A stretch of DNA of 64,000 nucleotides from a virus: positions 1-64,000 of IMG/VR virus record IMGVR_UViG_3300032897_000003; one strand, given 5' to 3'. Shown here piece by piece: positions 6,999 through 33,480 of the stretch (positions within the stretch are counted from its first letter, which is position 1; each line of letters begins with the position of its first letter). A program made the position numbers and the translations under genes. Under the pieces are notes generated by a model. The model had not been told where the DNA came from, searched no databases, and worked only from the letters and a program-made list of their open reading frames with translations.

Positions 6999-7883
6999 AT
7001 GCCAGACCCCATCATCCCACAGCCCGCAGAAAACCAACTCCCAGTCCCACAGCCACAGCCAATCACTCCGCCAGATCCGAACGCGCAACCGGCGCAGTCC
7101 CAGACCGTGCGATCCGAAGGCAGCCTCGTGCATCTGCCGAGCCGGGCGCTCAAAGAGCGCTTGGACAAAGCAGAGAAGCGAGGACGCAGTGCCATGTTGG
7201 CCGAGCTTGATACACAAGCCCAAGCACTTGGGTACGCGAATCACGCGGCCATGATGCAGCACCTGCAAGCCAGGAAGCCAACCGGCGCGGGACCGAAGCC
7301 GGCGCAAGCCCAGCCCCAACCAGGACAGACACCCAATTCCGAACCGACGCCACCCAGGGATCGCAACAACCGCCAGGCCATGCGGGAGTACGAGCGAGAC
7401 CACCGTAGGTGGCAAGAAACGCAAAAGGCGAAAGAGCGGGCCGAGCAAGCGGCAGCCGATGCGCGCAAAAAGCAGCGACGAGCCGAGCGACAAGTGCAAG
7501 CCATGCAGGCTCGCATGGAGCTCGAGCGGATCGCGTCCCACGTTGGGATCAAGGACACCGACTACGCAATCACCTTGTTCGAGCGAGCCCACGCCAATTT
7601 GAGCGAGGACGATCTCGGGAAGGTCGACGAGGCAAAATTCTTCGAAGGGCTTCGTCAAGGACATGCGTACCTGTTCGGTGAAGTCGTGGTACCCGCTACG
7701 ACTGGCACGACAGGAACGGTACCAGGGTCGAGTGGAGCGAGACCGCCACAGCCTTCGGCCACGTCGGTCAAGGCAGGCGATCAGGGCAAGGTCGATACCA
7801 TGAAGATGTCCAAGGAGGAGTACCAACGGTACAAGGCCAAGTTGGGCATCCGCGGGGCAGCGGCCGGAACCCGAATGTCGTAG
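6999..7883 (+). CDS. Capsid scaffolding protein
   Basis: Pro/Gln-rich with coiled coil, C-terminal MSKEEYQRYK helix, directly before the capsid gene. Confidence 0.75.
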   Translation: MPDPIIPQPAENQLPVPQPQPITPPDPNAQPAQSQTVRSEGSLVHLPSRALKERLDKAEKRGRSAMLAELDTQAQALGYANHAAMMQHLQARKPTGAGPKPAQAQPQPGQTPNSEPTPPRDRNNRQAMREYERDHRRWQETQKAKERAEQAAADARKKQRRAERQVQAMQARMELERIASHVGIKDTDYAITLFERAHANLSEDDLGKVDEAKFFEGLRQGHAYLFGEVVVPATTGTTGTVPGSSGARPPQPSATSVKAGDQGKVDTMKMSKEEYQRYKAKLGIRGAAAGTRMS

Positions 7884-7939: not shown

Positions 7940-9352
7940 ATGGATTGGTCAGTCATTTCTCAAGACCCGCAAATTCGAGCCCTCGTGCAAGAGAACGCGC
8001 TCATCCGCGAGTTCAGGGATGCGCTCTTCCCCCGGATCTTGTTCCGCGGTGAAGCACAGGCGATTCACCAGCCCGGCGAAGCCGGCGACTCGTTTGTCTT
8101 CACCGGAAACGGCCTCATGACCCCGACCTCGGGCCCCATGAAGCCAGGCGAAGATCCCGAGCCGCAGGATTTCCAGAAGGAACAGTGGACGATGCAGTTC
8201 CACCAGTACGGCGATCGGGCGCCCGACACGCACATGCCGACCAGCATCCTCGCCATCGCAAGCTTGCTGGTGAACAACGTTCGCACGCTCGGTCTGCACG
8301 CGGCGCAGTCGCTGAACCGCGCCGTCCGCAACCGCCTGTACAACGCCGGCCTGTCCGGCAACACTGTGGGCACCGGCAACGCTGGCACGCATACACTGCC
8401 CGTCGCTCGCCTGAACGGATTCACCACCGCGCGACGGCCCGACCTCGCCAACGGCGAGCCGGTGAAGTACGCCGCGGTGTCGTCGAACAACCCGCTGATC
8501 GTGCACTACAAGCACAGCGGGACGGTCTACGACGCCACCGTGACCTCGTTCACGCCGGATAATTCCGGAGACGAGTGCGGGCCCGGCACGCTGACCGTGT
8601 CCGAGACGGTCACCGGCCAGTTCGTGTCACGCGATCCGATCTGGACCGATGACCACAGCGCCGTGCTGCGTCCTACGTCGCTGCTGTCGATCGACACCAT
8701 GGCGGCATCGACCACCTACGCGTTCACGTTCGACCTGTTCCGCCAGGCCATCGCGCAGCTGAGCGACAACAACGTGCCGAAGTGCCCGGATGGCTTCTAC
8801 CATTCGCACTTCAGCAACTACAGCAAGAACCAGCTGTACTCGAGCGACGAGGCCCAGCGGCTCCAGACGAGCTTGCCGGATTACTACTGGTACAAGGAGT
8901 TCACGATCGGCGACGTGCTCGGCACGCTGGTGTTCGAGGACACCGAGACGCCGAGGAAGGACACCTTGATCGGTGGCCAGACGAACACCTACACCGGGAA
9001 TCTGCGTCGGGGCGACCTGTTCGGCGGCGAGTCCTACAACGCCACCAGCGTCGAGATCCAGCGGCCCATCTTCTTGGGGGCCGAGGCCGTGTACGAATAC
9101 TACAACGACCTCAGCGGGATGATCACCGAGGCCGGCGTTGTCGGAGCCATCGGAGACTTCTCGAACCTCACGAACAGCGGCGTCGACGTCAACGTGGAAC
9201 GCGTGCAGTGCTACATCCGCGCGCCGGTGAACGTGATGGGCGACATCGTGACGGCCGTCTGGAAGATGATCGCAGACTGGCCGTGCAGGACCGACGGAGC
9301 CGTTGGCGGGAAGGCCCGCTACAAGAGAGTCGTCGTTGTTGAGCATGCATAG
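7940..9352 (+). CDS. Major capsid protein
   Basis: 470 aa after the scaffold; strong RBS and codon bias. Confidence 0.8.
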   Translation: MDWSVISQDPQIRALVQENALIREFRDALFPRILFRGEAQAIHQPGEAGDSFVFTGNGLMTPTSGPMKPGEDPEPQDFQKEQWTMQFHQYGDRAPDTHMPTSILAIASLLVNNVRTLGLHAAQSLNRAVRNRLYNAGLSGNTVGTGNAGTHTLPVARLNGFTTARRPDLANGEPVKYAAVSSNNPLIVHYKHSGTVYDATVTSFTPDNSGDECGPGTLTVSETVTGQFVSRDPIWTDDHSAVLRPTSLLSIDTMAASTTYAFTFDLFRQAIAQLSDNNVPKCPDGFYHSHFSNYSKNQLYSSDEAQRLQTSLPDYYWYKEFTIGDVLGTLVFEDTETPRKDTLIGGQTNTYTGNLRRGDLFGGESYNATSVEIQRPIFLGAEAVYEYYNDLSGMITEAGVVGAIGDFSNLTNSGVDVNVERVQCYIRAPVNVMGDIVTAVWKMIADWPCRTDGAVGGKARYKRVVVVEHA

Positions 9353-9875
9353 CCGGCATTTCGGAGCTAGTTTCACGTGAAACTCACGCAGAGCAGCCAC
9401 ATCACGAACCGGGCGACGAGCCCGGAGGGCTGCTCTGCGTTTGGTTTGCCCTTCGGGGCAATTAAGTGGCCTGGACCGTTCTACGGTCGTATGTCTCAGC
9501 GGTCGTGTCGCTGGACTCGGGCCCACCGGCGTGGTGGCTGCGTTTCGGCGCTGGCCTATACGAACATGCCGGGTAGCCACACTTACCGCCTGATGGTAGC
9601 GGCTCTGCGTGCAACTGGTATGGTCTCCGGTTTTGCGCATCCGCTTTTGGATGGCGGACTTGGACGAGCTTCGGCTTTGTCCGTGTTGTTGTGTGGCATT
9701 CGGGGAACGCAAACCCTAGCCTTTTTTGGCTATGGAACCGCGTGCCCCTTTGGTGGCCCCGATGCTAGTCGTCGGTCGGTGGCTTTTGCCATGACGTCGC
9801 ACTCTCGCCAGGAAAGTCCCCTCGCCCAGGGTTACAGGGCGTTACTTCCGTCGCTGGAGTGCGACGTCCCACCGC
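9353..9875 (+). ncRNA. Candidate large structured ncRNA (~520 nt)
   Basis: Many nested stems (13-bp 9386-9398/9428-9440; 12-bp 9793-9804/9857-9868), two cUUCGg loops, no convincing ORF. Confidence 0.65.
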
Positions 9876-9895
9876 TTTTCTCTTGAAAGGAAACC

Positions 9896-10312
9896 ATGTC
9901 AGCCTTCAGCGATCGTCCGAAGAAGCAGAAGCAGCCCGCGCCGGCCGATGCGGCAGTGCTGCCTACAGTAGAGCAGGTATCTCCGGCCGAGACGGTGACC
10001 GAGCAGGCCACGCCCGCTGCTGACAACGTGCAGGCTTCGGTGGTTTCCGAGGAACAGTTTCTTGCGGAACAGGCTGCGGCGGCAGCGCCGCCCCCCCCTC
10101 CCTTTTGCCCACCGCCGCAGCCTGAACCGCCGGTCAAGTCACCACGTGCGGTCAAGGTGATGGTGCGCGAGACAGGGAGAGTGATGATCGGTAGCAGCCG
10201 TTGCAAGATCGTGGCTGGCACCGTGCTCGACTCCAATCTGTACGACGACAACACCTGGCGAGCGATTCTGGCCCATCTCCACACCGATCCAGTGGAGGAC
10301 GAAGAGAAGTAA
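9896..10312 (+). CDS. Hypothetical head-associated protein
   Basis: RBS AAGGA; Pro/Ala-rich N-terminus plus a small domain. Confidence 0.65.
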   Translation: MSAFSDRPKKQKQPAPADAAVLPTVEQVSPAETVTEQATPAADNVQASVVSEEQFLAEQAAAAAPPPPPFCPPPQPEPPVKSPRAVKVMVRETGRVMIGSSRCKIVAGTVLDSNLYDDNTWRAILAHLHTDPVEDEEK

Positions 10313-10316
10313 GGCG

Positions 10317-10733
10317 ATGCCGCTGAGCGAGGATGAAAAGGTTCGCGTGCGATACCATCTGGGCTACCCGATGTTGTCGGCGAATCCGTCGCTGTCGTTG
10401 GGCGTCCCCATCGACACGCCGCTGATGACGTTGCTGCAGCGGGCGTTCGACATCATCCTGCCGCAGGCCGAGCCGATGATTCGACGGCTGATCGTCATCT
10501 GCGACCAGAAGGATCTTGAAGTGAGCGAGGCCAGCGACCGGCTGTCGGTGGCAAAGGCAGAGGGCGTGGAGATGCGAGTAGACGAGACGGACGCCAGGGA
10601 GCGCGAGTACATGCGCTGGGTGGCGCGGCTATCCGATGCACTGCACGCTCCAATCTATCCGTTTTCCGAGCGTTTTCAGGCGATGCCGTCGAAGCGCGGC
10701 CACACCGGCATGATTCCAGTGAGGGTGTCATGA
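10317..10733 (+). CDS. Head-tail adaptor (neck) protein
   Basis: MPLSEDEKVRVRYHLGYP, helical, position. Confidence 0.6.
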   Translation: MPLSEDEKVRVRYHLGYPMLSANPSLSLGVPIDTPLMTLLQRAFDIILPQAEPMIRRLIVICDQKDLEVSEASDRLSVAKAEGVEMRVDETDAREREYMRWVARLSDALHAPIYPFSERFQAMPSKRGHTGMIPVRVS

Positions 10734-33096: not shown

Positions 33097-33480
33097 ATGA
33101 CCACTACCACCACTACCATCACCCACGAAGGCACCCAAATCACTGCGTCCGAGGCATCCTGGCGCGCTCTCGGATTCCAGCTGTTGCTCGATGGCAATAG
33201 CGATAGATTGATGCTAGGCGCTGGCCCGCATGGAATCGAGGCTCTGCTGTATTTTGGCATCCAACAGGCGGGCACTCGCGACGAGCGCGCCGTAATCGCC
33301 GCCATCGTCGAGCGTGATCGACGAGCCGAAGAGCGCACGAAAGCAACGGCCCAAGCCCGTCTCGCGGAATCTCTCGGAGCCCTAGCACGAGAATTCCACG
33401 CCGAGACGGCCGAACAGCTCGTAGCGCGACTGCCCGACAAGATCAGGCCGTACGTCGCAAAGATCATGCAGCAGCGATAG
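33097..33480 (+). CDS. Hypothetical early protein
   Basis: RBS GGAG. Confidence 0.65.
   Translation: MTTTTTTITHEGTQITASEASWRALGFQLLLDGNSDRLMLGAGPHGIEALLYFGIQQAGTRDERAVIAAIVERDRRAEERTKATAQARLAESLGALAREFHAETAEQLVARLPDKIRPYVAKIMQQR

Follow-up and report, generated by a model that had tools for sequence, protein, structure and literature searches.

The stretch of DNA analyzed here (the window) comprises positions 1 to 64,000 of IMG/VR virus record IMGVR_UViG_3300032897_000003, i.e. the first 64 kb of a 78.9-kb viral record that is rated 99% complete; its G+C content is ∼62%. In its late operon, a gap of 543 nt (9353-9895) separates the stop codon of the major head (capsid) gene (TAG, 9350-9352) from the ATG of the next gene (9896). 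The gap is the longest in this part of the operon and exceptional, because neighboring genes overlap or lie only a few bases apart. An earlier inspection (the original prediction) had singled it out as unusually long for such a packed operon and had read it as a new large, multi-domain, structured phage non-coding RNA (ncRNA). With very high confidence, the gap indeed holds a real, conserved, and non-coding structured RNA, and folding, covariation, a coding test, and the negative search of Rfam all support the earlier reading.

The + strand of the gap has a minimum free energy (MFE) of -261 kcal/mol, compared with -216.8 ± 6.6 kcal/mol for dinucleotide shuffles (z = -6.67; 0/100 shuffles as good). 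The shuffling control that had been proposed for the gap thus places it well below random expectation. The - strand also folds well (z = -6.5), and folding energy alone therefore does not give the strand. The sequence is poor in A and rich in T (A 15%, T 25%, G 31%, C 29%; AT skew down to -0.36), and the consensus pairs described below comprise 125 G-U cells versus 13 A-C cells, with some G-U pairs being invariant. This count is biased, as the structure was predicted on the + strand, but the bias is not tenfold. The excess of G-U over A-C cells therefore identifies the RNA as the + strand, the strand of the late genes.

A search with the capsid protein returned 13 viral contigs with capsids 58-67% identical to that of the window, each with a ∼500-nt gap behind the capsid gene. 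This gap is 69-74% identical to that of the window, and the capsid gene is 66-71% identical at the nucleotide level, so that conservation of the gap equals or exceeds that of the capsid gene. Further members came from two motif scans, one of viral and one of metagenome contigs. We distinguished ten lineages with pairwise identities of 60-79%, all from viral or metagenome contigs with the same capsid synteny. A search of viral contigs with the 15-mer GCGRTCGTGTCGCTG hit at least 119 loci, of which nhmmer found only the already known relatives to be homologous; the 15-mer is unspecific because it is too short for GC-rich phage DNA. A match in a metagenome-assembled genome of Terriglobia and the metagenome locus L164 proved to be chance matches inside coding DNA and thus give no clue to the host.

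For an alignment of 11 sequences (alignment A2), RNAalifold yields a consensus of 123 pairs in 21 helices. In this consensus, 95.4% of the cells are able to pair, versus 83.6% in shuffled and 35-43% in slid controls. Two-sided (compensatory) changes occur at 72/123 pairs, compared with 28.5 ± 3.5 after shuffling (0/500 as high) and 16-21 in the slid controls, so that the covariation for which the original prediction had called is abundant among the ten lineages. MAFFT misregisters the stem of P1 as well as the pseudoknot, and for distant lineages, the 3' module could be aligned globally only within the core hairpin. Because of these register errors, P1 was assessed by folding each sequence singly and the pseudoknot by a test of pattern enrichment with controls.

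Table 1. Features of the capsid-downstream RNA and of the flanking genes, in window positions
Feature	Positions	Strand	Description
Scaffold-like gene	6999-7883	+	Pfam Phage_scaffold, E = 3e-8; upstream of head gene
Major head (capsid) gene	7940-9352	+	phrog_1357 major head protein, E = 3e-5; directly upstream of RNA
Linker	9353-9385	+	not conserved; length and sequence vary in alignments A1 and A2
P1	9386-9440	+	13-bp stem 9386-9398/9428-9440
P2	9446-9461	+	hairpin 9446-9451/9456-9461, UUCG loop
P3	9467-9524	+	9467-9475/9517-9524 around 9493-9502/9508-9516; invariant loop UCGUG 9503-9507
P4	9526-9572	+	9526-9533/9565-9572 around 9536-9543/9548-9556; invariant internal loop UAUACGAA 9557-9564
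P5 multi-branch domain	9576-9697	+	closing helix 9576-9582/9691-9697; consensus helices 9-14
Core hairpin	9702-9748	+	outer helix 9702-9710/9740-9748; most widely conserved module
3' three-way domain	9752-9873	+	closed by GGUGG/CCACC 9752-9756/9869-9873; consensus helices 16-21
Tail	9874-9895	+	GC, U-tract UUUUCUCUU 9876-9884, Shine-Dalgarno sequence AAGGA 9887-9891 of next gene
Small late gene	9896-10312	+	138 aa; directly downstream of gap; function unassigned
Gene 10317-10733	10317-10733	+	138-aa protein; kept in all relatives

The P1 domain assumes the same shape in 10/10 lineages folded singly, with a lower stem of ∼9-14 bp, a 5' internal loop containing CACGR, and an upper hairpin, and its stem sequences are quite different among the ten. 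In the window, this loop includes the invariant CACGA (9403-9407), followed by the upper hairpin 9409-9414/9420-9425. The helices of P2-P4 (consensus helices 4-8) are 97.7-100% paired and show two-sided changes in 17/39 pairs. The P5 domain is closed by a helix with compensatory changes in 5/7 pairs and carries arms at 9586-9590/9653-9657, 9606-9619/9626-9639 (invariant loop UGGUC), and 9659-9662/9682-9685, the last continued by 9666-9669/9674-9677 with a UUCG loop. One of the arms is wholly absent from relative L157, and hairpins are missing outright in both L137 and L157.

The core hairpin features an invariant internal loop, in which AAA (9711-9713) lies opposite AACC (9736-9739). Its inner helix pairs CCCUAG... 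with ...CUAUGG (9714-9721/9728-9735) and includes a conserved pyrimidine-pyrimidine mismatch. The 3' three-way domain comprises two hairpins (9759-9764/9770-9775 with loop CUAGU, and 9779-9783/9788-9792) and a long arm (9795-9808/9853-9866 plus 9813-9816/9845-9848), the lower helix of which has compensatory changes in 8/12 pairs. The family consensus at the 3' end reads CCCRCCnCUUUUC, and the terminator-like U-tract tail is probably the 3' end of the RNA. Two pairs of invariant pentamers, CACGA/UCGUG and UACGA/UCGUA, are complementary to each other, and a palindromic CUAG loop occurs in 8/10 close lineages. The pentamers and this loop are candidate tertiary or intermolecular contacts; as they never vary, covariation gives no information on them.

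Many details of the original prediction are recovered in this consensus. The perfect 13-bp stem 9386-9398/9428-9440 is the P1 stem shared by all ten lineages, the perfect 12-bp stem 9793-9804/9857-9868 lies within the covarying helix of the long arm, and the two cUUCGg loops (9451-9456 and 9669-9674) are present in the sequence. Among the four domain-closing stems that had been proposed, only that of P5 (9576-9582/9691-9697) covaries, and the other three were mis-assigned. Stem 9353-9363/9561-9572 is part of the MFE structure of the window, but its 5' arm lies in non-conserved sequence, and the consensus instead pairs 9565-9572 with 9526-9533. Stem 9696-9705/9757-9765 could form in the window but is used neither by the MFE structure nor by the relatives, where 9702-9710/9740-9748 is the conserved helix. 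Finally, stem 9777-9782/9869-9874 relies on the wrong copy of GGUGG, as 9779-9783 has its own hairpin with 9788-9792. Covariation of GG[U/C]GG with CC[A/G]CC (U-A to C-G) assigns 9752-9756 as the partner of 9869-9873; in L008, the second GGUGG copy is altered, leaving only its local hairpin.

The linker between the capsid stop codon and P1 contains a perfect 16-bp palindrome, AGTTTCACGTGAAACT (9369-9384; CACGTG core), 17 nt after the stop codon. The palindrome is present as originally described but is found in none of the related phages and therefore does not belong to the conserved RNA. It may bind a protein or may be no more than a local hairpin.

A candidate H-type pseudoknot caps the long arm of the 3' domain, with stem S1 formed by CCC (9818-9820) and GGG (9830-9832) and stem S2 by 9823-9828/9836-9841. 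Most members display the pattern CCC-(1-4 nt)-S2-GGG-(2-6 nt)-S2', which is found in 33/73 non-redundant capsid-downstream regions, compared with 3/68 controls from capsid coding sequences and 7/73 reverse complements. Within the close family, S2 shows two-sided changes in 5/6 pairs. S1 is an invariant CCC/GGG in most members and is replaced by CGC/GCG in L180, by CGCG/CGCG in L204, and by CGAG[C/U]/[G/A]CUCG in the L192 group. These sublineage changes are compensatory and thus support S1 as well.

The gap is spanned by an open reading frame (ORF 9377-9886, 169 aa), and its conservation as a protein had been named among the observations that would speak against an RNA. This frame is open across ∼480 nt in each of five diverged lineages. 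With ∼15% A, however, stop codons are rare (3-5 per frame, as expected and as observed in the other frames), and one open frame is therefore unremarkable. Substitutions in the gap are spread evenly over the three codon phases (for example, 36/34/37, 46/50/46, and 45/54/47), whereas the same script returns 117/89/198 for the capsid gene. Because a coding frame on either strand would skew one phase, the gap has no coding signature. Indels of 1 nt cause the phases to disagree between lineages in 160/468 columns, and relative to the capsid gene, the ORF of the five lineages is in frame 0, +1, -1, -1, and +1. There is no conserved start codon among the lineages, and the ORF has no credible Pfam or PHROG match. 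In the P2 stem, compensation falls on first codon positions (UUUGCCC-UUCG-GGGCAA to UUUGGCC-UUCG-GGCCAA) and would swap Pro/Ala for Ala/Pro. Stop codon read-through or frameshifting from the capsid gene, with which the ORF is in frame in the window, was rejected, as the frame relation differs between lineages. In short, the frame is open in the relatives but not coding.

Searches against Rfam 15 returned no match at the gathering score, neither in the 64-kb window nor in 20 related loci. At E ≤ 10, there was none on 9200-10000 of both strands, including GOLLD, ROOL, OLE, HEARO, raiA, and Phage_pRNA, and the same scans gave no RNase P, tmRNA, riboswitch, or self-cleaving ribozyme match. Intron_gpI, Intron_gpII, and group-II-D1D4 also had no match at E ≤ 10 on 9200-10000. 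Phages with and without the element share the same conserved capsid C terminus, and the next gene starts from a Shine-Dalgarno sequence and an ATG of its own, which does not fit an intron. ARAGORN detected no tRNA or tmRNA gene in the window, in line with the earlier remark that no tRNA, tmRNA, or intron motifs were recognizable. With a length of ∼500 nt, 21 helices, 72 pairs with two-sided changes, and a phage origin, the RNA has the attributes of a large ornate phage ncRNA. A literature search retrieved no description of a large capsid-downstream RNA, and none of 50,697 isolate phage records matched the gap by blastn. An IMG/VR survey lists 10,006 "csRNAs," with motifs of 29-151 nt (PMC10690425); this RNA is not among these as a whole, but fragments of it could be included. 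By every test applied, the RNA is a new class that is absent from Rfam.

To follow the element further, we added 80 loci with more distant capsids (41-55% identical to that of the window, except for a few close relatives that were included again). The distance from the capsid stop codon to the next small gene is bimodal: it amounts to ∼53-150 nt in some 14 loci, whereas most of the remaining loci have ∼390-670 nt. The long gaps of the distant loci are A-poor like that of the window, and blastn links them to the family of the window via a single block, the core hairpin. Its layout is a variable, covarying outer helix, an invariant G-C/C-G closure, AAA opposite AACC, and an inner helix CC(C)UGG/CCA(U)GG. 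In an alignment of the core hairpin from 22 lineages (alignment A6), 15 of 46 columns are invariant and 10 nearly invariant, and 7/9 outer pairs covary.

A covariance model of the core hairpin (R3) matched 34/75 representative sources at E < 0.01, in each case downstream of the capsid gene and on its strand. The exact core motif is found in 29 viral contigs, and all but one end-cut contig encode a capsid homologue 180-800 nt upstream (identity down to 37.5%), as well as an adaptor-like gene downstream where the flank is present. Five loci missed by R3 (L192, L237, L230, L222, and L219) have a longer inner helix that is framed by the same GCAAACC...GGAACCGC. Outside the close family, a model of the 5' part (R1, built on P2-P4) and one of the 3' domain (R2) gave only weak matches, each of them on the + strand and immediately behind the capsid gene; the 3' third of the RNA also occurs behind capsid genes that are only 37-50% identical. 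The shared module is therefore the 3' third, and P1-P5 are apparently specific to the clade of the window. Within the window, R2 has a weak + strand match at 33250-33366 (15.6 bits, E = 0.08), which is probably due to chance.

The short-gap loci are informative about the position of the element. In 13 of them (53-149 nt), the gap mostly contains a strong GC hairpin and a U-run a few bases before the Shine-Dalgarno sequence of the next gene. At the same place, the 3' arm of the long RNAs is G+C-rich (CCCRCC or GCCACC) and leads into a short U-run, a pattern that in its strict form hardly ever matches inside the RNA body. In a FastTree phylogeny of 66 capsid proteins (a quick tree, with an arbitrary midpoint root), core-bearing RNAs are found on both sides of the root, and the short-gap loci make up nested, well-supported groups, at least four in number. 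Moreover, the divergence of the RNA tracks that of the capsid. Together, this suggests that the element is ancestral, vertically inherited, and lost several times. Repeated loss that leaves a plain terminator each time argues for a function beyond termination that is useful but non-essential.

The genes around the RNA fit an uncultivated phage. Pfam and NCBIfam contain no match to the capsid protein, and its PHROG match is weak, yet it has >320 homologues in metagenomes, one of them named "N4-gp56 family major capsid protein" by JGI (Joint Genome Institute); it belongs to a large, uncultivated capsid family. The nearest capsids of isolate phages are only 24-28% identical, so that no annotated relative exists. 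An N4-like identity, as the JGI name suggests, was rejected because no ORF of the window exceeds 1,099 aa.

The small late gene behind the RNA encodes a protein whose N-terminal half is hypervariable and Pro/Ala-rich and whose C-terminal domain of ∼55 aa is conserved; tblastn detects this domain in all relatives. Homologues in distant relatives often start with M..K..DPLEAAK. The protein has a poor predicted fold (predicted local distance difference test score, pLDDT, 0.61) and no Pfam, PHROG, or NCBIfam match, and homologues of its gene are also present in phages without the RNA. For the product of the following gene (10317-10733), the closest among the named clusters of the protein atlas is that of the PhiTE head-tail adaptors (PF26075; score of 0.90, no more than a lead), which would fit the earlier label of a neck gene.

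In some relatives, additional genes are found in this region. In locus L168 (3908-4444; on one contig with L162), an additional ORF of 178 aa is inserted behind the capsid gene. This ORF overlaps the 5' end of the RNA, contains a Cys-rich ...GYQNGCRCDECRR... motif, has no Pfam match, and may be a mobile gene. A freestanding HNH endonuclease gene is encoded in L183 (4722-5495; Pfam HNH, E = 2e-11), and similar Cys-rich ORFs are present in L234 and L181; in some distant relatives, the HNH gene thus separates the small post-capsid gene from the adaptor-like gene. Homing-type genes seem to use this part of the head module as a landing site.

Because the element ends where related phages have the intrinsic terminator of the capsid operon, it is most likely a 3' untranslated region and not a separate gene. 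Between the capsid stop codon and P1, we found no conserved promoter-like block and no sigma-70-like site, and the simplest reading is therefore that of a tail of the capsid message. Every instance is found at the same place and on the same strand relative to the capsid gene. Our preferred explanation, to which we assign a probability of roughly 0.6, is that the structured ncRNA of ∼500 nt (9386-9884, + strand) is the 3' untranslated tail of the scaffold-capsid late transcript, that it ends in an internal terminator, and that it has a further, partner-binding role.

RNA polymerase would pass from the end of the capsid gene into the element, which would fold co-transcriptionally into the row of P1-P5, core hairpin, and three-way 3' domain. 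A fraction of the transcripts would stop at the U-tract, 12-20 nt before the next start codon. Here, the CCACC of the closing helix (9869-9873), stacked on the 14-bp arm, is followed by 2 nt and then by UUUUCUCUU. The element would thereby hold the place of an operon-internal terminator that sets the excess of capsid message over the downstream (neck/tail) message. The highly conserved core hairpin and the apical pseudoknot are most likely binding sites for a specific partner from phage or host, or for a second copy of the RNA, which would provide an accessory function. Since several lineages have lost the element, this function appears to be non-essential.

Several observations weigh against this explanation. 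The U-tract is short and interrupted, its helix closes a 120-nt three-way junction and no simple hairpin, and a terminator scan did not flag it. The strict pattern of a GC-rich arm and a U-run matches only 13/38 long-gap relatives. Two close relatives, L137 and L157, are without the core hairpin, the most conserved module. A role as terminator or stabilizer does not explain the near-invariant core hairpin, the pseudoknot, and the invariant loops. The 5' and 3' ends of the RNA are predicted from sequence. Finally, the controls behind the 72/123 covarying pairs were not those of R-scape, and because the sequences are related, counts from shuffles do not equal probabilities.

The strongest alternative, which we regard as possible but clearly second to a terminator-ended message tail, is a free-standing large ncRNA that would act in trans. 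Such an RNA would be processed from the late transcript or made from its own promoter and might work as a ribonucleoprotein, homo-oligomer, decoy, or anti-defense factor. Its main job would be RNA-based, as for ROOL, GOLLD, and the packaging RNA (pRNA) of phi29, and the terminator-like end would merely set its 3' end. The 15 invariant and 10 nearly invariant columns of the 46-nt core among capsids 37-68% identical speak for this, as do the invariant loops and the complementary pentamers, and the palindromic CUAG loop could kiss its own copy. A conserved 3' and a variable 5' region are shared with GOLLD (10.1101/2024.12.08.627333). A site behind the most highly expressed late gene would also provide abundance. 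However, no conserved promoter or processing site was found, the element was lost at least four times with no visible replacement but a terminator, and the candidate contacts are invariant and thus have no support from covariation. This alternative overlaps with the preferred explanation and does not exclude it.

An improbable alternative is a cis-acting sensor, in which a giant attenuator or riboswitch-like leader would let a ligand or phage protein set read-through into the neck/tail genes. Like in terminator-type leaders, the U-tract is located 12-20 nt before the start of the next gene. Only 3-4 nt separate the core hairpin from the 5' arm of the helix downstream that closes the terminator, and the terminator arm has the pseudoknot at its tip, so that binding at either could change the stability of the terminator. 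Nevertheless, no covarying alternative (antiterminator) pairing was found, the pseudoknot is placed inside the terminator helix and does not compete with it, and ∼500 nt is far longer than known leaders. In addition, the relatives with short gaps manage with a constitutive terminator.

Still further behind is a DNA-level element (a packaging site, origin, or recombination site) or the remnant of a mobile element or intron, which we consider very unlikely. The variable presence of the element between related phages, the genes inserted nearby in relatives (HNH in L183, the extra ORF in L168), and the good folding of the - strand would suit it. The 125:13 excess of G-U over A-C cells is specific to one transcribed strand, however, and neither an intron nor another Rfam family matches at E ≤ 10. 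The unchanged capsid C terminus, the single copy per genome, and a divergence that tracks that of the capsid, as fits vertical descent, also speak against such an origin. That ORF 9377-9886 encodes a protein is the least credible alternative, because its one stop-free frame, not very improbable in A-poor sequence, goes along with no third-position excess, frame-shifting indels, and hairpins deleted as a whole in L137 and L157.

Phage RNAs and terminators of known type resemble the element only in part. Terminators behind capsid genes are well known; T-phi of phage T7 is the intrinsic terminator after capsid gene 10. Like these, the element is located directly after the capsid gene and before less-expressed structural genes, and ends in a GC helix and a U-run. 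In contrast to these terminators of 30-50 nt, it has ∼500 nt, the U-tract helix closes a three-way junction with a pseudoknot, and long conserved single-stranded stretches are present that have no role in termination. The pRNA of phi29, a structured phage RNA tied to head morphogenesis, has ∼170 nt, is transcribed from an early promoter at the genome end in phages with protein-primed replication, and multimerizes by loop-loop contacts. The RNA described here is likewise structured and phage-encoded, and its palindromic loop could allow it to multimerize in the same way, but there is no Phage_pRNA match at E ≤ 10.

With ROOL and GOLLD, the RNA shares the phage origin, a length of several hundred nt, multiple domains, pseudoknots, many conserved loops, and an unassigned function, and GOLLD shows the same division into a conserved 3' and a variable 5' region (10.1101/2024.12.08.627333). 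However, it does not match the models of either at E ≤ 10, and it is found behind a capsid gene at the position of a terminator, whereas ROOL and GOLLD are usually encoded near tRNA islands and the window has no tRNA genes according to ARAGORN. The one hint at a homo-oligomeric nanocage of the ROOL and GOLLD type is the palindromic CUAG loop of 8/10 close lineages. The lytic phage ICP1 produces an abundant non-coding transcript of ∼800 nt from a large ORF-less region by its lysis cluster, which was defined by RNA-seq (PMC7567579). For that transcript, no covariation-supported structure is reported, whereas the RNA described here is defined by covariation and located behind the capsid gene; blastn of the isolate phage collection revealed no sequence relation between the two.

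It is conceivable, if rather doubtful, that the RNA acts as an independent functional macromolecule, released late from the capsid transcript in amounts matched to the capsid protein and assembling with itself or with a head or host protein. Self-assembly would proceed via the CUAG loop and the CACGA/UCGUG and UACGA/UCGUA pentamers, and protein binding via the core hairpin and the pseudoknot. Such a molecule could serve in head assembly, in packaging, or against a host defense that senses capsid production. If true, the large RNA machines of phages would gain a new class, and one whose genomic logic is defined. To our knowledge, the large (>300 nt) structured RNAs of bacteria and phages make up fewer than about a dozen classes, and GOLLD, ROOL, OLE, and raiA are still without assigned function. 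Unlike these, the candidate class has a fixed and interpretable address behind the capsid gene, on the transcribed strand and ending at the position of a terminator. It also comes with natural controls, namely sister phages that have a plain terminator instead (at least four times) and two close relatives without the core hairpin, which make it testable what the extra 450 nt add over a terminator and what binds the AAA/AACC hairpin. Members of the family occur in dozens of uncultivated phage lineages, so that the RNA represents a common and overlooked trait of a group of environmental phages and not a curiosity of one genome.

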